Source: Candidatus Omnitrophota bacterium (GTDB lineage Bacteria > Omnitrophota > Gorgyraeia > B26-G9). Taken from it: a stretch of 64,000 nucleotides of DNA. Within the stretch, counting starts at the first letter, position 1, and each line of letters begins with the position of its first letter. Shown in pieces: positions 18,287 to 62,765 of the stretch. Location: positions 8,557-72,556 of the forward strand of contig JAZDHZ010000035.1 of the NCBI GenBank assembly GCA_043805415.1, given 5' to 3'. The notes beneath the pieces were generated by a model, which ran no database searches, had not been told where the DNA came from, and saw only the letters and a program-made list of their open reading frames with translations. The position numbers and the translations under genes were made by a program.

Positions 18287-18379
18287 TGCACCCTGTTTCT
18301 TCACCCTTCCGCGAGGTTCAAAATATATTCTTCTCACAACCCAGGCAGATATTCTGACTCTCCTGCTTTTCTGACTGCC

Positions 18380-18515: not shown

Positions 18516-18540
18516 ACCTGTGTTTATTTAACTATCAGCT

Positions 18541-18568
18541 ATTATAGCAGACCGATTATCATAGTCAA
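18541..18568 (-). promoter_or_regulatory. Sigma70-like promoter TTGACT-N16-TATAAT driving the riboswitch/btu operon
   Basis: Minus strand: TTGACT (18568-18563), 16-nt spacer, TATAAT (18546-18541); ~30 nt upstream of the aptamer 5' end. Confidence 0.5.
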
Positions 18569-18706
18569 GATAAAGTAGAGGGAAATAAGGGGACACAATA
18601 CTTAATTAGTCTGAAAAACGAATAAGAATTAACAGAAATTAACAAGGTCAGACCCGAAAAACGGAAAAGATTAAGAGAATATTTTTCCTTGTGACTTTGT
18701 GACTGT

Positions 18707-19480: not shown

Positions 19481-21730
19481 TTATTCTTTTTCTAATATCC
19501 CCAGAAATAAATCCACAAGCAATGGATCAAACTGAGTACTGGCAACCTCTTTTATCGTCCTCATGGCAACTTTTTTACTACGTGCTTTACGATAACGCCG
19601 ATTGGAAGTCAAAGCCTCATAAGTATCAGCCAGAGCAATGATTCTCGCTCCCAAAGGAATTTCCTCGCCTTTTAAGCCATAAGGGTAGCCCTTACCATCC
19701 CAGCGCTCATGATGATGAAGCATCAGCGGAATAATTGATTGGAAGAAATGAATCGGCCTTAAAATATCCGCTCCGATCTGCGGATGTTTTTTTATTTCTT
19801 CATATTCCAGTGCAGTTAACTTTGACTTTTTCATTAATATTTTTTCACTTATCCCGATTTTTCCCAGATCATGGAGTATTGCAGCTTGCCGAATCCGCTC
19901 TATTTCATCTTTGGGCAGATTTTTTGCTTTTGCCAGCTCAGTGGCATAATGCACGGTTTTTTCAACATGCTCTCCGGTATAATGGTCTTTTATCTCAATT
20001 GTTTTAGCAAAAGCAAAAATCGCTTCGGCCAAGCTTTGATTTGCCCGCTTTGTCAGCTTACCTAATTTATCCTGTAAAGCCACAACATCCGTGCCTTTTT
20101 CTGAATCAAGCGTTGAAACCGGTCTGGTACTGACAATATCCTGATATGAATATACCTTATCTCCCCCGGTTTCTTTGACTTTGTCCAGAATACTATCAGC
20201 GACTTTTATAAAATCACCGGGATTATGAATTCTATCATCCGGGAAACAGGCAACAGCCACGCTTATTTTCAGTTTAACTTTATGCGTTTTATTACCAAAA
20301 GTGTATAATTTAATAATTTCCAGCAGCCTTTGAGCTAAAACCAAAACAATCTCTTTATCCGCCCCGGGAGTAATAATAATAAATTCCTCTCCGCCATAAC
20401 GGATCACAGTATCATATTTACGCACCATTTGGGTTAATTGCTCAGAAAACTGCTTTAAAACCAAATCGCCGAACTGATGGCCGTAAACATCATTTATTGA
20501 TTTAAAATAATCCACATCCAGGAGAATTACTGAAAGCGGCAAGGAATGTCTTTTGGCCCGCATAAATTCAGCTTCAATCGCTTCTTCGAAATAACGATGA
20601 TTATACAGATTAGTTAAAGCATCCCGTAAAGCTAACTGTTTAAGCCGCATATTCATCTTAAGCAGTTCTTTATTTAATGATTTTATATCCCGGTCCATTT
20701 GCCGGCGCCTGATCACATTAGCAAACATGTCCGCGACAAGCCTTAACAGACCCTGAATATCATCAGCCCAGGGTTTTTCCTCTCGCACAGAATCAAAACC
20801 TAAAAAACCGATTACCCCTCCCTGATAAACCATGGGCGCATTTACCAAAGAACGAATACCGGCTAATTCCCATTCTTTTTTTTCCGCTTGCGCCGACTCA
20901 GGTAAATCTGCCAGAGAATAAACATGCACAATCTCCATGGCTTTAATCTGATTAATAATCCAGGGAAAACTGCTTATCGGAACTTGCTTTAATCTTTGAA
21001 TCTGCGGTTCAATACCCAGCGCGCACCATTCATGAGTATTACTCATATTTTTATCATTATCTGAAAAAATAAATATATAACAGCGGTCAATGCCGGCAAA
21101 TTCACCCAACTTGGCAAGAGCTTCATTTATCCCATTATCGAAATTTGCCGCGTTAAGATTAATGAATTTAGCGGATAATGCTGTAATAACATTTTTAAAT
21201 TCATTTTTATAATGCAGCTCTTCTTCTACTTTTTTTCTTTGCGTAATATCCCGCAAAACAATCATAAACGCCACTGGACGGCCCTGGCGATTTTTAATTA
21301 TCGAGCTATTTATTTCAACTGATATCCGCTGCCCGTCGCCTCGGAGTATCTCATACTCAATATTACGCAAAGGAGAACTTAAGGTTTTCTGCAAATTAGT
21401 CCTAGCCCGGTCGCGATCTTCCGACACAATAAGCTCAAAAGCGTTTTTTCCGATCAGGATTTCCAGGTCTTTAATCCCGTATAATTCCAAAGCCTGATCA
21501 TTAAGCATAATGATATTCCCGGATAAATCTAATAAGGCAATTGCTTCCGGCGAGATCTCGACTAAGGTATGGTATAATTCCATACTTTCATGCAGTACTT
21601 CTTCAGCAAGGTTTTTGCCTTTCTTCCCGCTGGTCAGCTGGGAAATCTGGGCTTTAAGATCTTCCATCTCCCGCAATAACTCATCTTTTTCGTTTTTTTT
21701 ATCCATGGAATCCGTTAAGGCTAAAATCAT
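19481..21730 (-). CDS. Multidomain c-di-GMP signalling protein: coiled-coil + PAS + GAF + GGDEF + HD-GYP
   Basis: 749 aa; GGDEF active-site RYGGEEF; HD-GYP motifs (HDLGK ... HHERWDGKGYPYGL); PAS and GAF-like regions N-terminal. Confidence 0.8.
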   Translation of the reverse strand: MILALTDSMDKKNEKDELLREMEDLKAQISQLTSGKKGKNLAEEVLHESMELYHTLVEISPEAIALLDLSGNIIMLNDQALELYGIKDLEILIGKNAFELIVSEDRDRARTNLQKTLSSPLRNIEYEILRGDGQRISVEINSSIIKNRQGRPVAFMIVLRDITQRKKVEEELHYKNEFKNVITALSAKFINLNAANFDNGINEALAKLGEFAGIDRCYIFIFSDNDKNMSNTHEWCALGIEPQIQRLKQVPISSFPWIINQIKAMEIVHVYSLADLPESAQAEKKEWELAGIRSLVNAPMVYQGGVIGFLGFDSVREEKPWADDIQGLLRLVADMFANVIRRRQMDRDIKSLNKELLKMNMRLKQLALRDALTNLYNHRYFEEAIEAEFMRAKRHSLPLSVILLDVDYFKSINDVYGHQFGDLVLKQFSEQLTQMVRKYDTVIRYGGEEFIIITPGADKEIVLVLAQRLLEIIKLYTFGNKTHKVKLKISVAVACFPDDRIHNPGDFIKVADSILDKVKETGGDKVYSYQDIVSTRPVSTLDSEKGTDVVALQDKLGKLTKRANQSLAEAIFAFAKTIEIKDHYTGEHVEKTVHYATELAKAKNLPKDEIERIRQAAILHDLGKIGISEKILMKKSKLTALEYEEIKKHPQIGADILRPIHFFQSIIPLMLHHHERWDGKGYPYGLKGEEIPLGARIIALADTYEALTSNRRYRKARSKKVAMRTIKEVASTQFDPLLVDLFLGILEKE

Positions 21731-25062: not shown

Positions 25063-25235
25063 AACTAAAAACTTTCAATTAGATAATAAAAATTAAATCC
25101 ATTTTGCTTTTCAGAAGATTTCATATACAGTATCCCGGCACACAGCACTGATAAGGATTATCCCCAAAGGTGCCTGATTAATATTATTCGCAGGACGAAG
25201 AATGGTTTAAATATACAGCTTGATGATTTTCATAA

Positions 25236-25991: not shown

Positions 25992-26019
25992 AAATAATAA
26001 TTTGCCTGCTTTGCATGTC

Positions 26020-26964: not shown

Positions 26965-26980
26965 AATACACCTTTTCCGC

Positions 26981-27754: not shown

Positions 27755-27763
27755 GAAAATTAT

Positions 27764-29002: not shown

Positions 29003-29033
29003 TTACCGCCTTTTTAATTAAATCCGAATCAGC

Positions 29034-48617: not shown

Positions 48618-51600
48618 CTATGTCTTTTTCCCTTGAAAATAGTTTTTTATTCTTTCCAAATACCAGAAAACCAAGGGAATAAAAATCAAAGTATACACAA
48701 TTGATGCCATAATCCCCCCGATCATAACCGCGCCCATGGCCTGCTTTCCTTCCATCATTGCCCACAGCTGCGGAAAAACCCCCAGGACTATGGCCAGTGA
48801 AGTCATAATAATCGCTCTGAATTTTTCCGAAGCGCCCAGCCAAAGCGCTTCTTTAACCGCTACGCCTTCCTTCATCTTCAGCAAGGCATAATCAAGCAAA
48901 AGAATCGCGTTATTTACTACCAATCCCACCAGCATAACCATGCCCATTAAAGACAAAACATTATTTGTATAGCCCAGAAAAAACATCGCGTAATAAACTC
49001 CGACAAAAGATGTAAATACTGTCATCATAATCGCGATCGGATATAATGCTGAATTCATAATCGCGGCTAAAAGAATATAGGTTAAGATCAGTGCCAGAAG
49101 AAAAGCCTTGCCTATTTCCGTATTTGACTCAGATTCATATTCCGCGTCACCGACATATTTATAACCATATCCTTTATCTATGGATAAGGTTTCAAATTGT
49201 TTATCTAAAATCTTGCGGACAAAGCCGGTATTGCTTTTGGATAAATAGCCTTCCAAACGGATAACTCTATCCCGGTCGCGGTGTTTAATTGTCGGCAAAG
49301 CCTTCGCGTCCTGTAAATCACCCAATTCTGTGATTGGAATTAATCCTTTGCTGGATAAAACCATTATTTTATTAAGGTCAGCGAAATTTGAGGCATATTC
49401 AGAATCAAGCTCAATATTTATATCATATTCCTGTCCTTTTTCTTTATAAATATTTGTTGTGTCGCCATAAATACTTGCTCTTAATGTCTGGGCAATATCG
49501 CTGCTGGTCAGGCCATAAGCAATCAGTTTATCCTGATCCGGAATAAATTTTATCTCTTTTTTCGGCGCTTTATAAGAAGAACTTACTGAACGGAAATAAC
49601 CGCTGTCTTCCATTGTTTTCTGCATTGACTGGGAAAGCACAATCGCTTTATCATAATCATCGCCAAAGACATTAATCGATATATCGCCTTCTTCACCGCC
49701 GCCCATACCCAAACGCATTATATTAATCTGCGCGTCCGGGATCGCGGCCATAAACAAGATAAGCTCATCAATTATCCGCAGATCTGAGCGCTGGCGTTTT
49801 TTAGAAGAAATAAGATCCACCGCGATTGTCGCGTTTTCCACGCCATTGTCGCCTAATTTACTTAAGTATGATTTTTGTTCGGGAAGCTGTTTTACTCTGT
49901 CTTCAATGATTTTTACCACTGATAATGTCCGCTCAATAGTCGAGCCTTTGGGCATAACCAGCATTATTTTTATCTTATTCTCATCATCTGAAGGCATAAA
50001 CTCGCTGTCAATATACGGCATTATTCTGGTTAAAGACAAAAATGACAGCAGCACCAGCATAATCATTATCAGAGGATGGCGGAAAGTAAATTCAAAAATC
50101 CTTTTGTATTCCTGCGTGCAAACATCCATTATTTTTTCAGTAAACCGCACCGGGAATAATAATACCGCGCTAAGCTTGTTTTGCTTTGGCGCGGTTTTCT
50201 GTTTCTTAAGCAATAATCCGCAAAGCATCGGAGTCAGGGTAAACGAAGCAATCAAAGAAAACAATGTCGCGTAAACAACGGTTAAGCCGAATGACTGAAA
50301 GAATTTCCCGACTATCCCGCCCATCATCGCGATCGGCAGAAATACCACCAGATTAGTTCCGGTAGAAGCCATGACTGCCCCGGCAACCTCATGGGTAGCG
50401 CTCACAGCCGCGTGCTGCGCGTCTTCATGATGCTGCAGATGCACCAGCACGTTTTCAATAATAACAATCGCGTTGGCAATCAGCGTTCCCAAAGATGTGG
50501 CAATGGCCATAAGCGTCATCATATTAATACTGAATCCTGAGGCGCTTACCGGCCAGAAAGTGGAAATTACTGAAGCGGGAATAACAATTGCCGCGATAAA
50601 AGTAAGCTTCGCTTTGCCGGTAAAAAGATACAGAATAACTACGGTGAGCAAAATCCCGAGAATAATATTAAACTGCGCGTCAGCGGTTTCATTCTTGATA
50701 AAATCCGCTGTGTCCGAGGCAATCTGAATATCCATGCCTTCGGGCAGCTGTTTTCTGAATTCAGCCATCCTTTTGCTGATCTGACCGGCAATCTCCACCG
50801 CGTTTCCGTCTGAAACCTTGTTTATCGAAAGCCCGACAACTTCCTGGGCATTAAACCTGGCCATGGATTCGACTTTTTTAAAACTGTCTTCAATCTCCGC
50901 GATATCTTTTAAATAAAATTTATTCCCGTCTTTTGAACGCAGCTCAAAATTTCTTATTTGCTCAACATCCTGAAACTCACCGACAAACCGCACGCTCAGG
51001 GAGGAAAAACCCTTTTCCAATTCTCCTCCCGGGATATTCCGGTTTTTCATCTTTAGCGCCGTAATCACTTCCTCAATGGAAATGTATTTTTGTTTCATCA
51101 GCTCCGGATTAAGCTCAACATTTATCTGCCTTTCTTTTCCGCCGTAAACATCAACCTTAGCCACGCCCTTAACTGAAGCGAGTTTGGTTTTAAAAGTTTT
51201 ATCCGCGTACTCATAAAGCTGCCGGACATCGATATTTTTACCGGAAAGCACCATCTCAATTACCGGTTCTATCAAAGGATCATATTTTTCAATAATCGGC
51301 GCTTCAATATCATCCGGCAGATCATTCAATATCGCTTCCACCTTGTCTTTTACTTCAATGGATTTCACATTAACATCAGCTGAAAGCAAAAACTTTATAA
51401 AAACAAATCCCAGATTATCATAAGAATCACTGCGGATCTGGTCAATCTGCGATATCTCGGAAACCGCGTCCTCGATCTTATTGACCACCAGCGTCTCCAC
51501 CTCAAGCGAAGTCGCTCCGGGATAAGTCACGGCAACTGTAATAATCGGAAAATCTATTTGCGGGGTTTTTTCCACCAGTAATGTGGAAAAAGAAAATATG

Positions 51601-51668
51601 CCCAGAACCACAAATACAATAATCAGCATGATTGTCGTTATTGGTCTTTTAACAAAAAATTCTATCAT
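48618..51668 (-). CDS. Efflux RND transporter permease (AcrB/HAE family)
   Basis: 1016 aa; 12-TM RND architecture with two large periplasmic loops; N-terminal MIEFFVKRPITT. Confidence 0.9.
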   Translation of the reverse strand: MIEFFVKRPITTIMLIIVFVVLGIFSFSTLLVEKTPQIDFPIITVAVTYPGATSLEVETLVVNKIEDAVSEISQIDQIRSDSYDNLGFVFIKFLLSADVNVKSIEVKDKVEAILNDLPDDIEAPIIEKYDPLIEPVIEMVLSGKNIDVRQLYEYADKTFKTKLASVKGVAKVDVYGGKERQINVELNPELMKQKYISIEEVITALKMKNRNIPGGELEKGFSSLSVRFVGEFQDVEQIRNFELRSKDGNKFYLKDIAEIEDSFKKVESMARFNAQEVVGLSINKVSDGNAVEIAGQISKRMAEFRKQLPEGMDIQIASDTADFIKNETADAQFNIILGILLTVVILYLFTGKAKLTFIAAIVIPASVISTFWPVSASGFSINMMTLMAIATSLGTLIANAIVIIENVLVHLQHHEDAQHAAVSATHEVAGAVMASTGTNLVVFLPIAMMGGIVGKFFQSFGLTVVYATLFSLIASFTLTPMLCGLLLKKQKTAPKQNKLSAVLLFPVRFTEKIMDVCTQEYKRIFEFTFRHPLIMIMLVLLSFLSLTRIMPYIDSEFMPSDDENKIKIMLVMPKGSTIERTLSVVKIIEDRVKQLPEQKSYLSKLGDNGVENATIAVDLISSKKRQRSDLRIIDELILFMAAIPDAQINIMRLGMGGGEEGDISINVFGDDYDKAIVLSQSMQKTMEDSGYFRSVSSSYKAPKKEIKFIPDQDKLIAYGLTSSDIAQTLRASIYGDTTNIYKEKGQEYDINIELDSEYASNFADLNKIMVLSSKGLIPITELGDLQDAKALPTIKHRDRDRVIRLEGYLSKSNTGFVRKILDKQFETLSIDKGYGYKYVGDAEYESESNTEIGKAFLLALILTYILLAAIMNSALYPIAIMMTVFTSFVGVYYAMFFLGYTNNVLSLMGMVMLVGLVVNNAILLLDYALLKMKEGVAVKEALWLGASEKFRAIIMTSLAIVLGVFPQLWAMMEGKQAMGAVMIGGIMASIVYTLIFIPLVFWYLERIKNYFQGKKT

Positions 51669-51695
51669 TGTTTTCTCCTGAAAATTTTTCCAGCC

Positions 51696-52370
51696 TTATA
51701 GTTCACTAATTATCTGAATATGATCTTTGTCCCGCAAAGCTGATTGGCCGCTATAAATTAAAATGTCCCCGGGGTTTATTCCGCTTCGCGCAATCGCGCC
51801 ATAGCCATTGCGCGAACTTATTTTAATCAGCTGCTGCCGGGCAATTCCGTCATTGCCTTTCCAGATATAAAAATCACTGCCTTTTATATCTAAAATATCA
51901 TTCGGCACATTGATCACTTGCTTAAAAGTATTAGTCTGGACAAAAACAATCAGCTTCGCGCTATTTTCCCAAACCAGCTGTTTTAGCTCTACTTTTACTA
52001 AAAACATCCCGGTTTCCAGCGAAATCGCCTCAGAAACCGAAAGAATTGTTCCGATATTCTCCGCGGCGTTTTCCTGCTTATATATCTTTTGTCCGCTGGA
52101 AAGCGCGTCCTTAATATCTTTACTGACAAAACCCTGCCATTGTTTATCTTTATTCAGACTGATAGTCAGGCGCGTATATTCCGCGATATCCTCGAGCGCG
52201 GCTTTTTTTACAGTAACCGGAATTCCTTTTTCCTGCCGCTGGGCAATACTGCTTGCTATGGTTCTCGAGCGCTCAGCTCTAACCTGATTTTGCCTGATTA
52301 ATACCAGCGCGATAAAAACAATTAATAATAAACAGTATCCGCATGTTCTAATATTTAAAAATTTTTTCAT
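51696..52370 (-). CDS. Efflux RND periplasmic adaptor subunit (short form)
   Basis: 224 aa; N-terminal anchor; beta-barrel/MP domains, but the usual coiled-coil hairpin appears reduced. Confidence 0.55.
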   Translation of the reverse strand: MKKFLNIRTCGYCLLLIVFIALVLIRQNQVRAERSRTIASSIAQRQEKGIPVTVKKAALEDIAEYTRLTISLNKDKQWQGFVSKDIKDALSSGQKIYKQENAAENIGTILSVSEAISLETGMFLVKVELKQLVWENSAKLIVFVQTNTFKQVINVPNDILDIKGSDFYIWKGNDGIARQQLIKISSRNGYGAIARSGINPGDILIYSGQSALRDKDHIQIISEL

Positions 52371-52374
52371 CTCT

Positions 52375-53658
52375 CTAGTCCTTTACTGTCAATCTTTCTA
52401 TCTTTGCTTTTGTTACCGCGATATTATACAGCGTCTGCTGCTGCTGCAGTTTTTGGCTGGTAAGCAGCTGTTCAGCATCATTTAAATCAGTTAAACTAAC
52501 CTGTCCGGTTTCAAACATATCTCGGGTTATGGTATATGATTCTTCGGCAAGCCGCACCGCCTGATTATTCGCGTCAAGGGTTTTTAAATATTCAACATAT
52601 TCTTCAATCCCTGTCTTAAGGCTTAATAATAAATTTTTTTCTTCCAGTTTGCGCTCTAGCCGGGCATTATCCCTGTCTGCTTTTGCCTGCTCAATCATTG
52701 CCCATTTTTCTCCGCCGTTCCACAAAGGCACATTAACGCTGATCCCGGCAGAAGCATAAGTATCGATTTCCTCAGAGCCAATATATTTTTTATCATTTGA
52801 GCCGCCATTATAATCCCCTTCGGCGAACAGAGAAACCGTGGCCAGAGTATCAGCGCGCTTGCTGCTAAGCATGGCTTCCGCTGCTTTGATTTGCGCGTCC
52901 AGAGCTTTTAAAGCCGGCTCATTGGCATATAATTTATTTAACTGTTCTTCGTAGGAAATAGTCTGATTATTTACCGGAAATTGATCAATAAGGTTTATCT
53001 TAGTATCCAAGGGAAGATCAACCAGGGTATTTAATGTTTTTAAAGCAGTTTGACACTGCGCCCGGGCCTCACTAAGCTGCGGGATTCGCGCGGCAATATC
53101 CGCGTCCATTTTAATAATATCCCGCTTGGAATTTCTTCCGGACTGAGCGCGAAGCTCTAAAAGTTTCTTATTGGCAACAATGCTATTATACGATTCCTGG
53201 GCAATCAGAAAAACATTCTGAGTAAAAAGCAATGAATAATAACTTAGTTTTGCCGTATAAATAATATCCCGTTTTTTTGCTCTGTCCTGTAGCCGGATCG
53301 CCTCAACTGATTTTCTGGCCGCGTCCACAGCCGCGCTGACCCGTCCGAATGACCATAAAAGCTGCGTAATGCTTATGCCGCTTTTCAGATCATAATCCGT
53401 GGTCTTTTCCGCGCTCACGGGATATTCCGTATTATTTGTCCAGGTAGCATTGGCATTTAAATGCGGCAAAAGCCCGGAGCGGGACTGTTTATAAACTGCC
53501 TGGGATTTTTTAATATTGTTCTCTGATATCTTCACTGCTTCGCTGGTTTTAAGCGCGGCGTCAATCGTGTCTTTTAGCCCAAGCTCTAAACCAGCATAAA
53601 CCGAAGACGCCAGGCTAAGCAGCGCAATCATTAAACCCAGAGTTTTTATTGCCTTCAC
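52375..53658 (-). CDS. TolC-family outer-membrane efflux protein
   Basis: 427 aa; signal peptide; two repeats of TolC-like coiled-coil/beta regions. Confidence 0.8.
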   Translation of the reverse strand: MKAIKTLGLMIALLSLASSVYAGLELGLKDTIDAALKTSEAVKISENNIKKSQAVYKQSRSGLLPHLNANATWTNNTEYPVSAEKTTDYDLKSGISITQLLWSFGRVSAAVDAARKSVEAIRLQDRAKKRDIIYTAKLSYYSLLFTQNVFLIAQESYNSIVANKKLLELRAQSGRNSKRDIIKMDADIAARIPQLSEARAQCQTALKTLNTLVDLPLDTKINLIDQFPVNNQTISYEEQLNKLYANEPALKALDAQIKAAEAMLSSKRADTLATVSLFAEGDYNGGSNDKKYIGSEEIDTYASAGISVNVPLWNGGEKWAMIEQAKADRDNARLERKLEEKNLLLSLKTGIEEYVEYLKTLDANNQAVRLAEESYTITRDMFETGQVSLTDLNDAEQLLTSQKLQQQQTLYNIAVTKAKIERLTVKD

Positions 53659-54317
53659 TTTAAATTCCCTCCTAAACCAATCCAGAGCGTTTTTAATTGC
53701 CTGGCCATCTGCTCTGAAGAAGTATGAAAATTTTTAAATTTAACTGCCAAAGGCGTTCCCACCATAATTGTTTTCAAGGCAACACAGACATTATTAATAT
53801 CAATAATCTTAGGCAGTTCCTTATTGCTGATTGCTTTTTGCAAACACTCTTTAAAAAATAAATCCAGACAATCCCCTGGAGAACCTATCGCCTCTATGCC
53901 TTTAAGTTCCGGATAAGCATAGTATTTTTCCGCGTTGGATATCTCAAATTCATGCGGATCTTCTTTTTCTCCAATCAGCGATGATATCATTTCATAAACC
54001 AGATAAGGATTATTAAACTCTTCAAACAAGGCTTGAAAAGCGCGGCAGATTAAATCATAGGCTTTATTTGTTTTAACTTTATTATAGGCTGTCCAAACAA
54101 CTTTTACCGAGTGCAGCTGCATACAAAAATGAACAATTTCAATTTTTTTCGAAAAATAATTAAAAAAAGTGCCTTCTGAAACTTCCACGCTTGCGCATAC
54201 CTGGCGGATTGAAATATCCTCAAACCGCGTATGTTCCAGGCGATTTATAAACTCACGCATTAAAGCGATTTTGGTTTTGGCGCTTTTTTTTTCTCTTAAA
54301 GAATATTTCTCCGGCAT
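53655..54317 (-). CDS. TetR/AcrR-family transcriptional regulator
   Basis: 220 aa; N-terminal HTH (FEDISIRQVCASVEVSEGTFFNYF). Confidence 0.7.
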   Translation of the reverse strand: MPEKYSLREKKSAKTKIALMREFINRLEHTRFEDISIRQVCASVEVSEGTFFNYFSKKIEIVHFCMQLHSVKVVWTAYNKVKTNKAYDLICRAFQALFEEFNNPYLVYEMISSLIGEKEDPHEFEISNAEKYYAYPELKGIEAIGSPGDCLDLFFKECLQKAISNKELPKIIDINNVCVALKTIMVGTPLAVKFKNFHTSSEQMARQLKTLWIGLGGNLK

Positions 54318-54504
54318 ACTGTCTCCTTTTAGCTTACATTATAATTATAGCACACTATATTTTTAATGTCAAGAGTACTTTTTTTTGATTTATCCAAAAA
54401 AACTTTGCTTGCCGGATAAATTAACCCGGATTAAACAAAAAAGACAATTCTGTTTTAGAATTGTCTTTAAAAGCCATCCTATTTTATTAAAAAACAAAAA
54501 GTGG

Positions 54505-56370
54505 CTATATCGCCTGCTCGATAAATATTGTTTTTTCAAAAGAAACATAACTTAAATCTATGCCCTGCACCGGAATAGCCTGAACATGTTTAGAAGCAGC
54601 CAAATAAGTAATCATTGCTGCCTGACAACTGAATAGCGATAATTCCTCAGGAGCAACCAGCTTTCCTTTTGTTGCCAGCAAAAAAGCTTCGATTTGGTCC
54701 AAACTCGAATCTTTATTAATTCCTTCAAGAAGAGTATTGAGCATCTCCTGGAATCTTTCTTGTTTTTTTTGCATTACCGCTATCGGCATTTTCTCCATGT
54801 CATTATGATTAACCATCGCGGCAAACCAGGCGTCTATTGTCGCGGCAAGATTTTCATATCCTGGTTTTAGATATAAAGCGAAAAACAGGCTGTTTGGTTC
54901 AATTACACCTTCGCTGACATAGTATGCCCGGTTTACCTTTATTTTTTCGCCATTAGTACCGTTTGCCGCGGTTTCGCTGTATTGGACAAAGTTTTGGTTA
55001 GGATGTTCTGAGCCATAATACACTTCTTTTATTCCTAATTCTTTAAAAACCTCCAGACATGCTTTGCAAGGATGCAGTGTAACATAAATAACCGTGTTCT
55101 TAAAAGGCTCGCCGGCTAAAGCAGTGAGTTTTTTTAATAAAGCCATTGCTTCTTTTGATTTATTTATTTTTGAGGTATAGGCAAGAAACTCCAGCCGCAT
55201 AAGTTCCGGCAGATATCTGGACTGCGGATTTTTTACCCGCAATTCCTGATCAAGCACCTTAAGCACTAGATTGATTTCCGCGTGGCGGTGAACTCCGATA
55301 GTATTAGTTGCTGAACAAAACGGCTCTTGGTTCCAGGAGCAAGAAATACCGCAGCTGACTTTAGCAAAAGGATAGCGGTATGGGATATTCTGCGCCTGCT
55401 TATACAAGGAATGAAAAATCCGGCTTTCCCGCAAAGGAATATGATAAAGCTGTTCATAGCGGTTTACTACCTCGCCGCCTTTGACAAGGCTTAAAAAACT
55501 CTGCACCACCCGCGGCCCGTACAAAACATAGCTATTGTTCTGTATGTCAGCAACCGCGCTGGCAAAGGAATGTTTAAGCTGCTGATTGTACGGCCGTATT
55601 CCAAGCATGGCGCTGAACGAATCAGCCACTCGGGCGATCTTTGCTTCCAGCGGAATATCTTGCCGGGTTACTGGATCAGGATAACCGGTACCGTCAGTAT
55701 TAGCGTGATGATAAAAAGCTACTGAAAGAATCAGTTGATCGCTAATACCGCACTCTTTTAAAATATCGTATGATTTTGCCGAATGTTCGACAATCTCATT
55801 ACGAATAGATTCCTGCTGCTCTTTGGAGAACAGAGTAATGTCTGAAAAAACTCGGTCATCGCTGATAACTTTGGGATCAGTATCGCACTTGCCGATATCA
55901 TGGAACCTGCAGCCAATCGCGATCTGCGCGAGCTGCTCTTGCCTGAATCCAAGAACCTTGCCCAGGCAATAAGCAATAAGCATTACTTCTTTTTCATGCT
56001 TGATAACCCATTCGTAATCCGCCGGCCGCTGCGCTTCTTTTGCTTCAAGCCTTTCAATGGCTTTGCCGTACTTATAGCCGTATTCGCTCTGGATACCCCG
56101 CATCAGGTCATCCGCGCTGCCAACCTGTTTAGTCAACTTTCGCATAAAAGACCCATACTCGGGATTTTCCTGCCCCGAGATCCCTGGCTGCGGCATAAGA
56201 CTCACATGCTGGTACATCGCTTGGCAGGTCGAGACCATGCCCAGGGTTTGCAGCTGCAGCTGCGGAGAAAGGCAGGATGGCTTACAATTAAACTCTTGCG
56301 CGCAAAGATAAGTCAATGCTGAAAAAAAGATAACATTAATCATAATAAACGTAATTATTTTTTTTACCAT
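54505..56370 (-). CDS. Signal-peptide protein with HD-GYP phosphohydrolase domain fused to a CDA-fold (TadA/dCMP-deaminase-like) deaminase domain
   Basis: 621 aa; predicted signal peptide MVKKIITFIMINVIFFSALTYLCA|QEF; HD-GYP motifs (CRFHDIGK ... FYHHANTDGTGYPD); deaminase zinc motifs HRHAEI ... VIYVTLHPCKACLEVFKELGIKEVYYG. Confidence 0.55.
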   Translation of the reverse strand: MVKKIITFIMINVIFFSALTYLCAQEFNCKPSCLSPQLQLQTLGMVSTCQAMYQHVSLMPQPGISGQENPEYGSFMRKLTKQVGSADDLMRGIQSEYGYKYGKAIERLEAKEAQRPADYEWVIKHEKEVMLIAYCLGKVLGFRQEQLAQIAIGCRFHDIGKCDTDPKVISDDRVFSDITLFSKEQQESIRNEIVEHSAKSYDILKECGISDQLILSVAFYHHANTDGTGYPDPVTRQDIPLEAKIARVADSFSAMLGIRPYNQQLKHSFASAVADIQNNSYVLYGPRVVQSFLSLVKGGEVVNRYEQLYHIPLRESRIFHSLYKQAQNIPYRYPFAKVSCGISCSWNQEPFCSATNTIGVHRHAEINLVLKVLDQELRVKNPQSRYLPELMRLEFLAYTSKINKSKEAMALLKKLTALAGEPFKNTVIYVTLHPCKACLEVFKELGIKEVYYGSEHPNQNFVQYSETAANGTNGEKIKVNRAYYVSEGVIEPNSLFFALYLKPGYENLAATIDAWFAAMVNHNDMEKMPIAVMQKKQERFQEMLNTLLEGINKDSSLDQIEAFLLATKGKLVAPEELSLFSCQAAMITYLAASKHVQAIPVQGIDLSYVSFEKTIFIEQAI

Positions 56371-56388: not shown

Positions 56389-58299
56389 TTAAATTGCCTG
56401 TTCAAGTATCCGGCAATTTTCTACTGATAAGCTATGAGTAAGCTTGTCTTGAAATCTATGGTTTGTCGCGGGAAATAAATTAAGTCCCCGCTCTTTAAAA
56501 TATTTATTCAGAAATTCTCTAAAAAGTTTTTTCCGATAACTATCATGCGCCTCATATGGCCGTTTACTAAAAGGAGATTGCCTGAACAACTCCGGATTGC
56601 GGCGGCTTTGTGAGCTAAAATACTCCCATTCCTCATTACTGCCTTCAATCAAAACAAACTCCGGCATATTGTTTTTCTTCAATATAATATTGATTAATGA
56701 TCTGCCGGTATGACCATTATTGTTAAAAAAAGGATGCAGCTCCATCACCAACCGCCAATGCGCCTCCGCGGCCAAATCCACTGGATTCAATTTGTTCGGA
56801 TTATGATTCATAAGCGCGAGGATCTCGTTCATGTTCCGGGAAATCTCATCCTGACTCATTGCCGGGAATATTTTAATAATATCCCCTTGAAGCCCCTCGT
56901 CATTAAGTTTATCTCTCACTCTTACCATCTCAGTCCTGTATTTCCCCGCTTCCTCTAGGGGCAATCCAGCCGCGCGATAATGCAGATAATTAATCCTGCG
57001 AACATCGTGTTCTGATATCAATCTGCCCGGGACCGCAAAGTGATTGATTAACCTTGCGATTTCTTCTTGCAAGGCTGTATCTTTTTCTGAACCCAAGGGC
57101 ATTTTACGGTATTCAATGATCACCGCGACTTGACCCGCGTCTTGATCATCTTCCCGTCCGCCTTCAATGATCCGGACAACTTTAACGTCATTCTTAAGAT
57201 GCAGATTAACTGCCTGGGATAATAATTTCCGGCCGGTGCGTAAGATAAATTTTCCGATAGGCTCACCGCCATAATTTTCCAAAAAATCATTGTAATCGGC
57301 CCACGAAGCTTGCTCAATAGTCAAATTCTTTTCTGACAAAAGCTGGCGAAAAGTAATTCCTTGTTTACCAGGCTTGTCAAAATAAGCTTCTCTGTCTTGA
57401 CTCATTTCTTTTTCATAACTCTTTTTCGTAACAACCTTAGGAAACAGCGCAAGGGCATAATCCGCGTACGCGTAGGGCTGCTTTTGCTTATTCCTCAAGC
57501 TTCGTGAAGCGTCTAATTGCAAAAGATAGCTTAACGGCGACATCTTATTCTGGTACTCCCCATATCCGCTAAGCGGAGTAAGCGTATAACGCCCCATGCC
57601 TTTGGTTAAAGATTCCGTGGCTTTAAGCAATTCAGTGGCAATGTAAGGACGTAATCTCAATTGCTTGTATTTTTCTTCCTGCACAGCCACCGCATAATGA
57701 ATCCAGCAGTTGTCTTTATATCCGCCGCTATTCCGGGGAATACTCATCAGCTGCTGCAAAGAAGCTGGAATAGCCTCGGCATTTTCCGCGTAAACCGAAG
57801 CGCACCAGACCACACCGATGATCTTTTTATCCGGATCATTCATATCCCGGGCAACCAGATGTCCCTTGGGATTATTGTCAAAAATCATTCGCGCTTTATC
57901 TGGTTTTAATTCAAATTTCGCGCCCCAGATTTCATTATGAACCTTAACTGCCTGCTCAAGATCATCTTGTTTTAAGCTCTCGATTTTAAATTTATGTCCT
58001 TTAATCGTCACTTCCTTTTCTACCGAAAGAACCTCGCTCAAACCGCTAAATTCAGGAGCAGGCAGTTTCCCTGGATGTGAAAGCTGCTTATATGCGTCCT
58101 GAAATAATCCATTGTTAACCAAAACCTGCGGGCTTAGACACTCTATTTGTTTTTTCTCAAGCGTGAGGCTGGCGCTAAAACCAAAGGCCTGCGCGCTGAA
58201 TATCTGTGCCAATACCAGAGCGATCATTTTCAGGAGTATTTTATTTGTACTCATATTATTCTCTTGCCCCTTGCTTATGCCAAAAAATAAGCATAGCAT
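56389..58299 (-). CDS. Signal-peptide protein with divergent Fic/Doc-like C-terminal domain
   Basis: 636 aa (alternative start at Met16, 58254, gives signal peptide MSTNKILLKMIALVLAQIFSAQA|FGF); Fic-like core AAEAHWRLVMELHPFFNNNGHTGRSLINIIL (compare HPFx[DE]GNGR). Confidence 0.4.
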   Translation of the reverse strand: MLCLFFGISKGQENNMSTNKILLKMIALVLAQIFSAQAFGFSASLTLEKKQIECLSPQVLVNNGLFQDAYKQLSHPGKLPAPEFSGLSEVLSVEKEVTIKGHKFKIESLKQDDLEQAVKVHNEIWGAKFELKPDKARMIFDNNPKGHLVARDMNDPDKKIIGVVWCASVYAENAEAIPASLQQLMSIPRNSGGYKDNCWIHYAVAVQEEKYKQLRLRPYIATELLKATESLTKGMGRYTLTPLSGYGEYQNKMSPLSYLLQLDASRSLRNKQKQPYAYADYALALFPKVVTKKSYEKEMSQDREAYFDKPGKQGITFRQLLSEKNLTIEQASWADYNDFLENYGGEPIGKFILRTGRKLLSQAVNLHLKNDVKVVRIIEGGREDDQDAGQVAVIIEYRKMPLGSEKDTALQEEIARLINHFAVPGRLISEHDVRRINYLHYRAAGLPLEEAGKYRTEMVRVRDKLNDEGLQGDIIKIFPAMSQDEISRNMNEILALMNHNPNKLNPVDLAAEAHWRLVMELHPFFNNNGHTGRSLINIILKKNNMPEFVLIEGSNEEWEYFSSQSRRNPELFRQSPFSKRPYEAHDSYRKKLFREFLNKYFKERGLNLFPATNHRFQDKLTHSLSVENCRILEQAI

Positions 58300-58678: not shown

Positions 58679-59071
58679 TCAAGCCTTTTGCTTTTTTTCA
58701 GCTAAAGCATCATTAATTACTGTAACAAGTTCTCTGGGTAGAAACGGTTTCTCAAGATAAATCGCGCTTCCTCCTGCTTTTACAAAATTTGACTTTATCT
58801 TTTCCAGATCTTTTCCAATATAACCTGTCATCAGAATTAATATCGCCTCAGGCAATTCTCTTTTTATCATTTTACACAGTTTAACCCCATCAATATTATC
58901 CAGCAGCAGGTCAATAAACACAATATCGTATTTTTTATTTTTTACCATTTTAAGCGCTGTCTCATATTCTAAAACTATGTCACTTTCATAGCCCATTTCA
59001 GCCAACTCAAATCTGATGGCAACGCATACAATCTTAACATCATCTATAATCAATACTTTATTTTTTTCCAT
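58679..59071 (-). CDS. Stand-alone response-regulator receiver (CheY-like)
   Basis: 130 aa; VLIIDD...VFIDLLLDNIDG. Confidence 0.8.
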   Translation of the reverse strand: MEKNKVLIIDDVKIVCVAIRFELAEMGYESDIVLEYETALKMVKNKKYDIVFIDLLLDNIDGVKLCKMIKRELPEAILILMTGYIGKDLEKIKSNFVKAGGSAIYLEKPFLPRELVTVINDALAEKKQKA

Positions 59072-59078
59072 AGCCCCC

Positions 59079-62000
59079 CTAACTTAGAGACGGAAATATC
59101 ACACTAAACTTTGTGCCTTTGTTTTCTTTGGTTTCTACTGAGATTGTCCCATTGTAGGCGTTAACTAGGGACTTAACTATCGCTAAACCAAGACCTGAAC
59201 CTTTTTTCTTTGTTGTAAAAAAAGGTTCAAATATTTTCGCGATTTTTTCCCGCGGAATACCTTCACCATTATCTATAACCGCAATCTTTATTTTATCGCA
59301 ATTTTTGATATTACTCGTTCTTATTATAAGTTTTCCGTTCTTGGACATACTATCACAAGCATTGCTGACCAGGTTAAGCACAATGTGCTGCAGCCCGCTT
59401 TTATGTCCGGATATATTATGGATATTTTCATCAAAATCTTTGATTATTTTTATTTTCTTTTCCTGTATCTTAGCATACGCGAACTTTAATACATTTTCTA
59501 TTTCTTTATTTACATTAAACTGCTCAATCCGTTCTTTTTTCGGCTTTGCGAAAAAGCTTAAATCACGGATGATCTCCGACATGTACAGACATGCCTCTTT
59601 CATATCATTGAAATTTTCAGCATCTTCAGTCCCCTTCTCTGCTTTTTTCGCGTAAGTATTCACCATCAGCATCAAGCCTGCCAAAGGACTGTTTAGTTCA
59701 TGGGCAACTCCGGCAGCAATAAGTCCCAAGGCCGATATTTTCTCACCCTGGACAAGCCTTTCCTGGAGCATCTTGGTAATATCACGTTCCGTCATGGAAA
59801 TCGCCACAGACCGGCCCCGGTTATCTTTAAGCGCGGTAATTGTCACTCCCACATCTATCAATACGCCGGTTTTTACAATCCGCTTTGTTTCAAAAGAATC
59901 AATTACTTGCCCGTTTTTTATTTTTCGGATAAGCGCCTTTTCTTTTTTTATATTCTCTTTAGGAATAAGATTAAATATAGTCATGGACAGTGCTTCCCTC
60001 TCTGTCCAGCCATAAATCTTTTCCGCGCCTTTATTCCAGGCAGTAATCTTTCCCGCGAAATCAACAATCAAAATCGAATCATTTGAATCACGAATTATCG
60101 TAGCCAGACGCTCCAGTTCCGCGGTACGTCTTACAGTATCAATATCAATTAAGGTTATAACCGCGCCTTCAATCTTGTGTTCCGCGGTCTTATAAGGCCT
60201 TATTTGAATTAAATGCCAGCGGCCTTCTTTATCCTGAATTTCGCGCTCTTGGATTTTTAAATTATCAACTACATCGATTATCATTTTTTCCAAGTCAGAA
60301 ATTTCCAGTTTGGGTTTTATGTCTGTGATCAGCCTGCCGATATCCCGGGGAATCAAGCTCAAGAACTTTTCTGCCATAGGGTTAAATCTGCGGATACACA
60401 GATCTCTTCCCACCATGATAATCGGAATATTTATACAATTAAGCAGATTAAGGATATCATTATTAACTATATTTAATTCCGCGTTGCGATTATTAATTTC
60501 CTCGTTCATTGTTTTTAATTCTTCATTCGTTGACTGTAATTCTTCTTTAGCGGTTTGGAGCTCTTCATTGGTACTGTGCAATTCTTCATTACTCGACTGC
60601 AGCTCTTCTAAAGATGATTTTAACTCTTCGGAAGTAGCTTCAGCTCTTTCAATCACAGTTTGCGTGTATTCTTTGTTTTTTTTCAATGATTCCCTTAAAA
60701 CTATAATTTCTTCATTTTTCGCGTCATTGTTACCCTTGCTGCTTATTTTTCTAACTGCTTTAAGCTCCATGCTTTTTTTATTCTTAGCCAGCTCAGCATC
60801 TTTAAACACTATCAGCAAATAATCGCTGTTTTCATCTTTGCCTTTGACTGGGATAGCTTCAATATCCACACATTTAATTTCAGCATTGCAGAGAAATTGT
60901 ATTTTCTTTATCGAAGTTTTTTGTTTTTTCTTAAATGCCTTTAAAATAAGCGCTCGCAAATCAGCAACAAGTTCTTCACGGATGATCTGTAATATATTCA
61001 GCGTTGCTCTTCCGCTCTTGTGCTGAATACACCACGACACATCACCCCAGCACTGCAGCAGTTCCATGTCAGAATTTATCAGAATAGAGGTACTCACAAA
61101 TCTGTTTAAAAGAATCCGGGAAACTTCCGGAAGCAGATTATCCTCAAACGCGGTTTTATTCACCGGCAATAGCGTATACACGCTCTCTTCCTGAGACAAA
61201 TCTTGACGCGGAACATAGAAGTTTGGCGCTAAATACGCGTCCGCGGTTTTTTTAAAAAATAATTTATGTTTTTTGTCAGCAGAAGCAAAAAGATTTGTAA
61301 AAACCCCGATTCCTTCAGCATCACTTAGGAGCAGCATGCCGCCTGGCTTCAAAGCATAATGGAGCATAGGGATAACTATTTTTTGCAAAGAATTTCCTAA
61401 ATAAATTAAAACATTGCGGCAGCTGATTAAATCCATATTGCAAAATGGCGGATCTCGCGTAATATCATGCCTGGCAAACACGCACATATCCCTGATAAAT
61501 CTTGTTATTTTAAACCCTTCTTCGGTTTTAATAAAATATTGCCGCAGCCTATGCTCTGAAACATCTGCTTTAATATTCTCGCCATATATTCCCCTCCGGG
61601 CATGGGCTAAAGCTTTTTCGCTTATATCTGTGCCGAAAATCTGAATATGCGGCAAAACATTTTTAATTTTACAAACCTCCGCCATTTGAATAGCAATAGA
61701 ATACGCTTCTTCTCCGCTAGCAACCCCGGGAACCCATATTCTAATCGGGTTTTTGGAAGATTTATGTTTTAATATTAAAGGAAAGATTTTTTCCCGCAAT
61801 AAAGCAAAAACCGCGGGATCACGAAAAAAACTTGTTACATTAATCAGCACATCAGCATACAGTTCTTTTAGCTCAAGCTTATTATGTTTTATATAATCCA
61901 GATATTGATTAACTGTATCTAGTTTAAGCAGAATCATCCGGCGCTCAATCCTGCGGATTAAAGTGGGTTTTTTGTAATTAGGAAAATCAACCTCTGAATA

Positions 62001-62765
62001 TTGTTTTAATAACTCAAGAATCACCTTTAGAGGTTCTTCTGTTATCAAATCAATTTTGGTTAATGATTTTTTCCGGGTCTCAGCAAAACCATGGGAAAAT
62101 TTAGAGATTTCCACACATTTTTTCGCTATTTCGTCAGGGCTGCTGATTAAATCCACATTTCCGCTGATAATCGCGTTATGCGGCATATCCGGATATTGCG
62201 CGGTATGCTCATTCTGAGCAAAGGTTATCCCGCCCAAAGCCTTAATTTCTCCTAAACCAACCACCCCGTCTGAACCAGTACCGGATAAAATTATACCCAC
62301 AACCTTATTCTCATAAGCTTGGGCTAAAACTTTAAAAAAAGCATCTATCGGGTGATGCGGCTTACTTTCTGCCTCTAGTTTAGTTAGCTTAAATTCTCCT
62401 TTAAGGACTTTCACCGTCCTGTCAGGCGGAAGAATATAAACATGGTTAGCTAATAAGCCCTGCTTATTTTTGGCAAAACAGACTGGCATTGTAGTATTCC
62501 GCGCTAAGATTTCATCCAATAAACTGCCGCGCGAAGCTTCCATATGCTGGATAATAATAATACTTGCGCCCATATCAGTAGGAAGGTTTTTAAGCAAAGC
62601 AATGATCGCCTCCAGCCCTCCGGCAGAAGCACCCACTCCGATTACGCTTATATTTTTGTTTAGGCAGGGAATATCAGGTGTTTTAGTAGTTAAAGATTTT
62701 GCTTTAAAAATGGGCAATGATTTCTTTTGGCAGCTCTTAGAAAAAGATTTGATGTTTTTTTTCAT
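59079..62765 (-). CDS. CheB methylesterase + CheR methyltransferase + PAS + histidine kinase fusion protein
   Basis: 1228 aa; CheB catalytic domain (VIGVGASAGGLEAIIALL, IIIQHM); CheR SAM-binding domain (IRIWVPGVASGEEAYSIAI); heptad coiled-coil; PAS; HisKA (GVAHELNSPLAGL); HATPase_c (DNGEGIP, GSGLGLAIV). Confidence 0.85.
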   Translation of the reverse strand: MKKNIKSFSKSCQKKSLPIFKAKSLTTKTPDIPCLNKNISVIGVGASAGGLEAIIALLKNLPTDMGASIIIIQHMEASRGSLLDEILARNTTMPVCFAKNKQGLLANHVYILPPDRTVKVLKGEFKLTKLEAESKPHHPIDAFFKVLAQAYENKVVGIILSGTGSDGVVGLGEIKALGGITFAQNEHTAQYPDMPHNAIISGNVDLISSPDEIAKKCVEISKFSHGFAETRKKSLTKIDLITEEPLKVILELLKQYSEVDFPNYKKPTLIRRIERRMILLKLDTVNQYLDYIKHNKLELKELYADVLINVTSFFRDPAVFALLREKIFPLILKHKSSKNPIRIWVPGVASGEEAYSIAIQMAEVCKIKNVLPHIQIFGTDISEKALAHARRGIYGENIKADVSEHRLRQYFIKTEEGFKITRFIRDMCVFARHDITRDPPFCNMDLISCRNVLIYLGNSLQKIVIPMLHYALKPGGMLLLSDAEGIGVFTNLFASADKKHKLFFKKTADAYLAPNFYVPRQDLSQEESVYTLLPVNKTAFEDNLLPEVSRILLNRFVSTSILINSDMELLQCWGDVSWCIQHKSGRATLNILQIIREELVADLRALILKAFKKKQKTSIKKIQFLCNAEIKCVDIEAIPVKGKDENSDYLLIVFKDAELAKNKKSMELKAVRKISSKGNNDAKNEEIIVLRESLKKNKEYTQTVIERAEATSEELKSSLEELQSSNEELHSTNEELQTAKEELQSTNEELKTMNEEINNRNAELNIVNNDILNLLNCINIPIIMVGRDLCIRRFNPMAEKFLSLIPRDIGRLITDIKPKLEISDLEKMIIDVVDNLKIQEREIQDKEGRWHLIQIRPYKTAEHKIEGAVITLIDIDTVRRTAELERLATIIRDSNDSILIVDFAGKITAWNKGAEKIYGWTEREALSMTIFNLIPKENIKKEKALIRKIKNGQVIDSFETKRIVKTGVLIDVGVTITALKDNRGRSVAISMTERDITKMLQERLVQGEKISALGLIAAGVAHELNSPLAGLMLMVNTYAKKAEKGTEDAENFNDMKEACLYMSEIIRDLSFFAKPKKERIEQFNVNKEIENVLKFAYAKIQEKKIKIIKDFDENIHNISGHKSGLQHIVLNLVSNACDSMSKNGKLIIRTSNIKNCDKIKIAVIDNGEGIPREKIAKIFEPFFTTKKKGSGLGLAIVKSLVNAYNGTISVETKENKGTKFSVIFPSLS

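Follow-up and report, generated by a model that had tools for sequence, protein, structure and literature searches.

This analysis concerns a 64-kb stretch of genomic DNA from a Candidatus Omnitrophota bacterium (hereafter the window, from whose start all positions are counted) and, within it, a minus-strand gene for a 621-amino-acid (aa) protein that joins an HD-GYP phosphodiesterase domain to a zinc deaminase domain. This fusion gene occupies 54505..56370, with its stop codon at 54505-54507, which is exactly the 621-aa open reading frame (ORF) given in the original prediction. An identical protein is held at NCBI as 'MAG: HD domain-containing phosphohydrolase [Candidatus Omnitrophota bacterium]', whereas a separate exact-protein lookup for the gene gave no record. 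Directly upstream lies a gene for a second 621-aa protein, of the Fic family. Our most promising lead, absent from the original prediction, is a feature that the two proteins share: both belong to a lineage-specific, co-clustered set of otherwise unrelated leader-bearing proteins that carry a two-part terminal tag.

Residues 1-24 of the fusion protein (MVKKIITFIMINVIFFSALTYLCA; 56299..56370, minus strand) are signal-peptide-like, as judged by charge and hydrophobicity heuristics and by conservation. The net-positive n-region MVKK is followed by a hydrophobic core at residues 5-22 (IITFIMINVIFFSAL), with a mean Kyte-Doolittle hydropathy of 2.73 across 12 residues, and then by LCA|QE, which places a small residue at position -1. 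An AlphaFold model of the fusion protein, built on 17 homologues and having a mean predicted local distance difference test (pLDDT) score of 75, represents the leader segment as a helix (residues 2-27). The protein has this single hydrophobic segment, with K/R before the core and acidic or neutral residues after it. Moreover, the leader is kept in all full-length family members and in all co-tagged proteins, and every tagged family exhibits a positively charged n-region and then a hydrophobic core. The Sec-type signal peptide proposed earlier is thus a heuristic reading of a conserved leader whose charge and hydrophobicity pattern is as expected for export but which may instead be an uncleaved anchor.

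The two parts of the tag lie near the ends of the protein. The N-terminal tag is CLSPQLQL (residues 33-40; 56251..56274, minus strand), in which L34 and P36 are invariant in the family, and the C-terminal tag is FIEQAI-COOH (residues 616-621; 54508..54525, minus strand), in which I621 is invariant. In the family alignment, CLSPxLQL is found 3-25 residues past the hydrophobic leader, and the C-terminal end reads ...I-x-Q-A-I-COOH. The broader consensus is C(18/26)-L(26/26)-S/A-P(26/26)-x-L/V-x-I/L for the N-terminal tag (n = 26) and Φ-I(20/31)-E/D-Q(18/31)-A(25)/S(6)-I(31/31) for the C-terminal tag (n = 31). Both tags fall in the low-confidence termini of the model (residues 21-65 and 572-621), as is expected of linear recognition peptides on flexible tethers.

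Within the window, only the fusion gene and the Fic gene encode both tags. Among ORFs in 12 family loci with a length of 150 aa or more, 17 have both tags, one has only the N-terminal tag (a frameshift fragment), eight have only the C-terminal tag (most of these with variant N-terminal motifs) and 142 have neither, so that the two tags co-occur with a Fisher p of 2e-16. By comparison, no ORF among 1944 from unrelated loci carries the two together, and none of the 12 that end in [AS]I has the N-terminal one. The pattern recurs in homologous loci. Locus L001 encodes a 1294-aa protein (TLSPAVHL ... FIQSAI; 12130-16014) and a 233-aa ORF (CLSPRLQI ... LIELAI; 17366-18067), and in L086 the flanking genes encode proteins of 1223 aa (CLSPHLSL ... 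DIDSAI; 5973-9644) and 2206 aa (CLSPKVYL ... LIEQAI; 12054-18674). L094 and L095 encode homologous proteins of ~1300 aa (MLAPAVQI ... LINSSI at 2727-6689 in L094; MLAPVLHI ... QIGQSI at 11913-15755 in L095), and four consecutive genes of L096 (1-3022) end in ...QAI, ...AAI, ...QAI and ...RAI. In total, at least nine tagged families can be distinguished: the fusion, the Fic protein, the ~1300-aa family (for which no Pfam or PDB relatives were found), the 1223-aa protein, the 2206-aa protein with a GNAT match, a UPF0146-like protein, the 401-aa protein of L096, the 233-aa protein of L001 and a HEAT-HD protein. BLASTP detects no similarity among them outside the leader and tags. In two loci (L090, 9621-11395; L091, 5624-7507), a frameshift or stop splits the fusion gene into two ORFs, with the N-terminal tag on one piece and the C-terminal tag on the other; these could be pseudogenes or assembly errors.

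We compared the tags with known sorting signals. The curli CsgA N22 segment, the C-terminal domain of the type IX secretion system (T9SS), LPXTG, PEP-CTERM and GlyGly-CTERM are likewise cargo-independent terminal signals on proteins with Sec leaders, and their cargo genes are often clustered. However, the C-terminal tag lacks the transmembrane helix, basic tail or ~80-residue β-sandwich of the known C-terminal signals. None of these signals is known to pair a post-leader LSPxΦxΦ with a free, six-residue C-terminal ΦIEQAI. LPXTG, PEP-CTERM, GlyGly-CTERM and T9SS signals were therefore rejected, because the tag is a six-residue free end without a hydrophobic helix, basic tail or folded β-sandwich domain of about 70-100 residues. 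A lipoprotein signal was also rejected: no lipobox of the form L-[AS]-[GA]-C ends the hydrophobic region, and the conserved Cys occurs 3-25 residues past the predicted cleavage site, where it is preceded by D, E, S or K. This Cys is dispensable, since T, M, Y, F or N takes its place in 8 of the 26 tagged proteins, which argues against lipidation or disulfide chemistry. Nor is the leader a class III (prepilin) signal, because G|F-x-x-x-E is absent and the motif comes after, not before, the hydrophobic stretch. Finally, the tags are not the ends of a recombination cassette, because only a short peptide motif is conserved and, apart from the leader, BLASTP shows no longer stretch of similarity. 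No sorting-domain match was found in NCBIfam at E values up to 1, and none of the Omnitrophota papers checked mentions such terminal motifs. A leader/motif profile of 19 sequences found nothing at E <= 10 among 5.8 billion proteins, for which such a profile is too short.

The first enzymatic half of the fusion protein is an HD-GYP domain (residues ~100-300; 55471..56073, minus strand), with the HD dyad at 157-158 and HHANTDGTGYP at 221-231. Pfam HD_5 (PF13487) matches residues 119-287 with 57.3 bits (E = 2e-15; cut-off 27.2) and Pfam HD (PF01966) scores 48.5 bits, and in the model residues ~70-300 form an all-helical HD-GYP domain. Both RFHDIGK (155-161) and HHANTDGTGYP (221-231) are invariant or nearly so among the 17 homologues. 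To locate the metal site, we mapped by alignment the ligands of PmGH, which we take to be H189, H221, D222, H250, H276, H277 and D305. All seven core ligands of this type are present (H125, H157, D158, H196, H221, H222 and D250) and are invariant or at least 90% conserved, so that seven of the eight metal ligands in the PmGH set are retained. In the GYP loop, conservation is complete at G227, G229, Y230 and P231 and reaches at least 90% at D226, while Ala replaces the Glu of HHExxDGxGYP in most family members (HHANxDG). The eighth PmGH ligand, the third-metal Glu E185 typical of the trinuclear subclass, corresponds to W121, which is nearly invariant in the family. A binuclear site like that of PA4781 is therefore expected, a difference from PmGH that does not exclude membership in the HD-GYP group. 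Given a Pfam score above the cut-off and the conservation of the core ligands and loop, the complete HD-GYP domain described earlier stands, and this half is probably a bimetallic phosphodiesterase.

HD-GYP enzymes are seen as c-di-GMP and cGAMP regulators that act inside the cell. Those used here for comparison (PmGH, 4MCW; PA4781, 4R8Z; DvhD, 9RBZ; V-cGAP3, 5Z7C; and Bd1817, 3TM8) are cytoplasmic, and HD-GYP domains usually stand behind REC, PAS, GAF or transmembrane sensor modules. The fusion protein differs in having a signal-peptide-like leader ahead of the domain and a deaminase attached to it. A protein that combines GGDEF and HD-GYP domains is encoded elsewhere in the window, at 19481..21730.

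The second half is a zinc deaminase core (residues ~330-485; 54916..55383, minus strand) marked by RHAEINL at 362-368 and HPCKAC at 433-438. The zinc site consists of H363-A-E365 and P434-C435-x-x-C438. R362, H363, N367, C435 and C438 do not vary in the family, and conservation of A364, E365 and P434 is 90% or more; the sole family member without E365 is P0016, which has HAV in place of HAE. Pfam dCMP_cyt_deam_1 matches with 31.1 bits across residues 407-453, that is, only the half containing PCxxC. In the model, the core of the cytidine deaminase (CDA) fold comprises strands at 339-343, 352-355, 427-432, 449-454 and 478-481. Its helices are those of the HAE motif (364-380), two inserted helices (387-399 and 406-418), that of the PCxxC motif (436-445) and one at 459-469, and others extend to ~570. 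The CDA-fold assignment made earlier thus agrees with the conserved motifs, the profiles and the model. So does the accompanying claim of an insertion, then put at ~40 aa: an insert of ~45 aa, modeled as two helices, lies between helix 2 and strand 3 (residues ~381-425; 55096-55230, minus strand). The core is followed by a helical extension (residues ~486-570; 54661..54915, minus strand; model helices 494-570) containing the conserved EPNxLFF (491-497), of which P492, N493, L495 and F496 are invariant in the family. This extension accompanies the deaminase module in other architectures as well, with profile positions to about 270 matched in P0122, P0129 and P0136.

The class of the deaminase can be narrowed. 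The deaminase superfamily's Helix-4 division is defined by a helix between strands 4 and 5 (Iyer et al., PMC3239186), and the modeled helix 459-469 lies between strands 449-454 and 478-481. As modeled, therefore, the deaminase is a member of this division. When the family profile is compared with PDB, CDADC1, human DCTD, and the T4 and cyanophage dCMP deaminases come first, ahead of Tad2 and cytosine deaminase, while structure comparison does not separate dCMP/dCTP deaminases from TadA. Weak NCBIfam matches are to ComEB (19.5 bits; cut-off 219), anti-phage dCTP deaminase and RibD, and TadA comes last (model PRK10860, 12 bits; cut-off 150). The EPCxMC motif of Tad2/TadA is absent and is replaced by HPCKAC (family consensus RPCxAC). 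In these respects, and also in its ~45-aa insert and its setting in an apparently exported multidomain protein rather than a universal, single-copy housekeeping gene, the fusion differs from TadA/ADAT2. The TadA-type label that the original prediction drew from a close alignment is consequently unjustified, even though the structure comparison does not decide between the groups.

Membership among the dCMP/dCTP deaminases, for which we considered human DCTD (2W4L), T4 Cd (1VQ2), the cyanophage enzyme (4P9C), CDADC1 (9HFQ) and ComEB, is also incomplete. The zinc-binding insert before helix 2 that defines dCMP deaminases is absent, with only ~8 residues between strand 352-355 and helix 364-380. 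The N found two residues after HxE in dCMP deaminases is present (the invariant N367), but the residue after it is L instead of A. By comparison with these enzymes, the fusion has its insert between helix 2 and strand 3 and carries the extra C-terminal EPNxLFF helices. Because it lacks both the dCMP-deaminase zinc insert and the Tad2 motif, we treat the deaminase as a distinct Helix-4 clade, compact at about 240 residues and marked by the two-helix insert and the EPNxLFF extension. From its sequence relationships, the substrate would most likely be a cytosine nucleotide.

These two domains are seldom combined. Among 5.8 billion proteins, the same architecture is present in about 18 clusters, with 35-71% identity and lengths that are mostly 580-610 aa, apart from a few fragments. 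Every such relative that bears an organism name is from Omnitrophica/Omnitrophota. In this search, E values leap from 1e-65 to 1e-15, and matches beyond the leap are to HD-GYP alone. A scan of 241 million metagenome records with the deaminase alone found three loci. No match to the fusion was found in phage and plasmid collections, and a profile search of genome contigs with the full-length family alignment returned generic HD-GYP motifs and no family member. One JGI record is automatically annotated 'HD-GYP domain-containing protein…/tRNA(Arg) A34 adenosine deaminase', so the architecture is already visible to annotation pipelines, and the literature searched on the fusion and on exported HD-GYP domains contains no description of it. 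The earlier impression that such a fusion was unfamiliar is therefore supported: two known domains are joined here in a rare way that the literature searched does not describe, at an unusual cellular location and under automatic annotation only.

Outside the family, a HMMER scan of 1.84 billion representative proteins with a profile of the deaminase alone gave 80 matches, which reveal other partners of the module. P0124 consists of a leader, NLSPALQV, an HD-GYP domain, a ~200-aa linker, the deaminase and the end ...VEMAI. P0122 has a leader, NLAPRVYI, the deaminase, a C-terminal domain of no known kind and the end ...SIEQAI. A leader, a methyltransferase, HD_3 and the deaminase make up P0127, and P0125, P0129 and P0133 combine LOG-type domains with one or more deaminases. 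With the exception of P0128, all strong matches with a complete N terminus have a strongly hydrophobic N-terminal segment, whereas weak, generic dCMP-deaminase matches mostly lack one. In L098, a 748-aa tagged HEAT and HD protein (leader, STLSPELSI, ...FFERAI; 4083-6329) is encoded directly upstream of the tagged deaminase P0122. The occurrence of HD protein and deaminase as separate, adjacent and similarly tagged proteins suggests, in the manner of a Rosetta stone, that the two activities cooperate. HD-type hydrolases are thus recurrently linked to this deaminase clade, either fused or as separate adjacent genes.

L098 is partly syntenic with the window, sharing the gene order MBL, AhpC, IMPase (L098 4083-8202 versus window ~25200-29800; the synteny lies at window positions 26-30 kb). 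At the position of the tagged L098 pair, the window encodes a 314-aa protein without known function and a 251-aa aspartyl-protease-like protein, which points to insertion or replacement of a tagged gene pair. The deaminase module with its insert also occurs in giant proteins of 2,000-6,400 aa. The deaminase-bearing giants P0126, P0130, P0132, P0134, P0135, P0136, P0159 and P0162 (~1,500-6,400 aa, most above 3,000 aa) have signal-peptide-like N termini with a common 'IQDAHxNxxAQ' region, and they end in Φ-Φ-x-x-A-A-COOH (...IKQAA, ...LIQQAA, ...IIKEAA, ...AFAVAA and ...ILSAA). This tail could represent a sister form of the C-terminal tag or result from plain family conservation.

The tagged partner in the window is the Fic-family protein, encoded upstream of the fusion gene at 56389..58254 (minus strand). 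The original prediction placed its start at 58299; the start is most likely 58254, as in the NCBI entry 'Fic family protein' of 621 aa. Its leader lies at 58177-58254, its N-terminal tag CLSPQVLV (in the context ECLSPQVLV) at 58117-58140 and its C-terminal tag ILEQAI at 56392-56409, all on the minus strand. Pfam Fic matches with 30.4 bits (cut-off 24), and the core aligns with FICD. The N-terminal half may be GNAT-like, by impression only, and Pfam finds no match there. According to the FICD alignment, the variant motif HPFFNNNGHTGR (56701-56736, minus strand) retains H, N, G and the last R of HxFx(D/E)GNGRxxR, with N for D/E, N for G and H for R. The protein therefore appears to belong to the Fic fold family, and AMPylation activity is uncertain. 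A clustered homologue search found nothing for it; its 90%-identity cluster is represented by a 54-aa fragment, a database artifact that makes the protein invisible to this type of search. A single-sequence AlphaFold model had a pLDDT of 36 and was unusable. In a BLASTP comparison of the Fic and fusion proteins, only the leaders align, in register.

The stop codon of the Fic gene is 18 nt from the fusion ATG, and an intrinsic-terminator-like hairpin with a 12-bp stem and T-run (54440..54468, minus strand) is located 37 nt after the fusion stop codon. The next gene has its own promoter, a perfect sigma-70 sequence (TTGACA-17-TATAAT with an extended -10 TG; 54344-54372, minus strand). This arrangement implies that the Fic and fusion genes, which we take to be co-transcribed, form a discrete unit. 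The promoter precedes a TetR-like gene (53655-54317) that heads an RND efflux operon (continuing at 48618-53658). The 380-nt upstream region contains no Rfam element, such as a c-di-GMP riboswitch. An effector-like pair of Fic and fusion proteins had been suggested earlier. The linkage holds, through the 18-nt spacing, the single terminator after the pair and the common tags, but the pairing is specific to this genome. The wider idea of an effector-like set finds its strongest evidence in the shared tags.

In other lineages, the fusion gene has different neighbors. A leaderless, untagged HD-GYP paralogue of 216-224 aa is encoded directly upstream in six divergent loci (L001 9303-9971; L084 9137-9799; L088 9294-9950; L090 8898-9572; L094 209-859; L095 9278-9952). 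It is 42-46% identical to the HD-GYP half of the fusion, and its copies are 60-85% identical to each other. The tagged ~1300-aa protein follows the fusion gene in three loci, and the window has neither the small paralogue nor this partner. Several loci share a backbone of ACT, two T2SSE ATPases and PFOR around the fusion gene. A horizontally acquired island was rejected, because the G+C fraction of the fusion region (0.40-0.43) is inside the range of the window and the family resides in conserved synteny. Similarity detected by PADLOC is restricted to generic HD, Fic and deaminase matches.

The rest of the window resembles an ordinary chromosome, with PAS histidine kinases, an MCP, the GGDEF-HD-GYP protein, two ThyX genes and the RND efflux operon. 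The ThyX (Thy1) genes lie at 18707-19441 and 32757-34268, and the second (503 aa) has two tandem Thy1 matches; ThyX uses dUMP, the product of dCMP deamination, and a link to an exported deaminase is not evident. Beyond the Fic gene, a 1228-aa protein (59079-62765, minus strand) is encoded upstream of a stand-alone receiver gene (58679-59071). Inspection by eye suggests CheB- and CheR-like regions, a long coiled coil with EEL(Q/K)S(S/T)NEEL repeats, PAS domains and a histidine kinase.

Taken as a whole, the reading that we tentatively favor, with a probability of roughly 0.45, is that the fusion is a Sec-exported, two-enzyme nucleotide-processing protein that constitutes one cargo of an Omnitrophota-specific tagged set and is delivered to another cell. 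Its core, namely that the protein is exported, tagged and bifunctional, is likely, and delivery into another cell is doubtful. We infer a common sorting step after Sec export as the most economical account of cargo-independent tags on flexible termini. A dedicated factor would read these tags after export and direct every cargo protein to one shared location beyond the inner membrane. The enzymes in question (Fic, GNAT, kinase-like, HD and deaminase) need ATP, acetyl-CoA or (cyclic) nucleotides, which are scarce outside cells. Because the co-tagged Fic, GNAT and HD cargo would thus use cytoplasmic metabolites, the final site of action would most likely be the cytoplasm of another cell. There, the HD-GYP half would open cyclic (di)nucleotides and the other half would deaminate a nucleotide base, most likely cytosine. 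The predatory or parasitic traits proposed for Omnitrophota (PMC10066038; bioRxiv 10.1101/2023.11.21.568195) also favor delivery to another cell.

Several observations weigh against this interpretation. The hydrophobic segment could be an uncleaved anchor, and the literature searched offers no precedent for an exported HD-GYP domain, whose metal site, like the Cys-Zn site of the deaminase, may be less comfortable outside the cytoplasm. The HAV sequence of P0016 suggests that deaminase activity may not be universal in the family, and the substrate assignment depends on weak profile preferences. Among the co-tagged cargo, the GNAT match of the 2206-aa protein is marginal (24 bits) and a Zeta-toxin/P-loop match in the 1223-aa protein (17 bits) is under the Pfam cut-off. 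The Fic partner is found only in this genome, whereas conserved chromosomal synteny after the leaderless paralogue in most lineages looks more like housekeeping than a mobile effector island. Also, neither the window nor the flanks were found to encode a reader or sorting machinery.

Other explanations account for parts of these data. The protein might reside in the envelope, in the periplasm or at the surface, where it would hydrolyze and deaminate environmental or necromass (cyclic) nucleotides for uptake, with the tags merely retaining or organizing enzymes. This is distinctly unlikely overall, given that the co-tagged Fic and GNAT proteins would have no obvious role in it, with no ATP or acetyl-CoA outside the cytoplasm, and that HD-GYP is a specialized cyclic-dinucleotide enzyme and not a general nuclease. 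In its favor, proteins with signal peptides repeatedly combine the deaminase module with HD_3 (5'-nucleotidase-like), LOG and methyltransferase domains, and the closest relatives of the deaminase act on mononucleotides. The high 18O labeling of Omnitrophota has been read as possible consumption of biomass or necromass, although nucleotide biosynthesis is encoded in >75% of their genomes (PMC10066038). An improbable alternative concerns the tags themselves, which might be signals for quality control or processing: a periplasmic PDZ protease of the Prc/CtpA/HtrA type would read the C terminus, LSP would be a propeptide cleavage site, and together they would control the maturation or lifetime of envelope proteins. 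The terminal residue and position -1 are strictly conserved with a free carboxylate, related giants end in Φ-Φ-x-x-A-A, and tail-specific proteases prefer small, non-polar C termini. An HtrA-like Trypsin-PDZ gene does lie within 7 kb in L084; however, it is not conserved in other loci, no PDZ protease is consistently linked to tagged genes, and this idea leaves unexplained both the strict co-occurrence of the two motifs and the clustering of tagged genes.

We give slightly less credence to a role in the cell's own signaling, in which a membrane-anchored or cytoplasmic c-di-GMP phosphodiesterase would be coupled to a deaminase that recycles or inactivates its product, and the terminal peptides would be docking motifs, as in encapsulation or scaffold peptides. 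The genome does have its own c-di-GMP network, which includes the GGDEF-HD-GYP protein at 19481..21730, and GGDEF genes adjoin homologues in L096 and L097. Furthermore, the closest relative of the HD-GYP half is the leaderless, presumably cytoplasmic paralogue directly upstream in six loci, and small pilZ genes lie directly downstream of most Omnitrophota giant genes (West-Roberts et al., bioRxiv 10.1101/2023.11.21.568195). Nevertheless, with one hydrophobic segment only, the positive-inside rule puts the bulk of the protein outside the cytoplasm, and the leader that is absent from the cytoplasmic paralogue is on every tagged protein. Highly improbable, finally, is a secreted deaminase of the polymorphic-toxin type that damages the nucleic acids of competitors, with HD as an accessory and an immunity protein nearby, a possibility that the original prediction had also raised. 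A leader is present, HD hydrolases are among the polytoxin domains associated with deaminases (Iyer et al., PMC3239186), and there are weak matches to MafB19-deam (24.0 bits) and Bd3614-deam (19.9 bits), yet neither reaches its cut-off (27 and 38.5, respectively). MafB19 is placed in the C-terminal-hairpin division, whereas strands 4 and 5 of the model are separated by helix 4. In addition, the deaminase is not at the extreme C terminus, as about 135 residues follow the core, and no conserved small downstream gene that might confer immunity was seen in the family loci. RHS, filamentous-haemagglutinin and pre-toxin modules are absent, as are PADLOC, phage or plasmid links.

A bolder version of the reading that we favor would make the tags the address label of a previously unrecognized Omnitrophota sorting or secretion route, which would export clustered cytoplasm-type enzymes into prey or host cells. 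The HD-GYP-deaminase, Fic, HEAT-HD and giant proteins, some of them GNAT-bearing, would all be part of this arsenal. As the first exported HD-GYP enzyme, the fusion would take apart the cyclic-nucleotide second messengers of its target (c-di-GMP, or immune signals of the cGAMP type) and edit the nucleotide pool there. We judge this full scenario unlikely. The secreted or surface phosphodiesterases of pathogens, for example of the CdnP type, share with it the concept that cyclic dinucleotides are destroyed outside the cytoplasm of the producer. To our knowledge, they have folds other than HD-GYP and neither a fused deaminase nor these tags.

If the favored reading is true, an exported HD-GYP-deaminase would mean that cyclic-dinucleotide biology also operates outside cells or between them. 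The terminal tags provide a simple, searchable signature for a co-exported set of proteins in an uncultured, possibly predatory phylum. With this signature, the identity of the proteins exported by Omnitrophota and that of the export machinery become testable questions.

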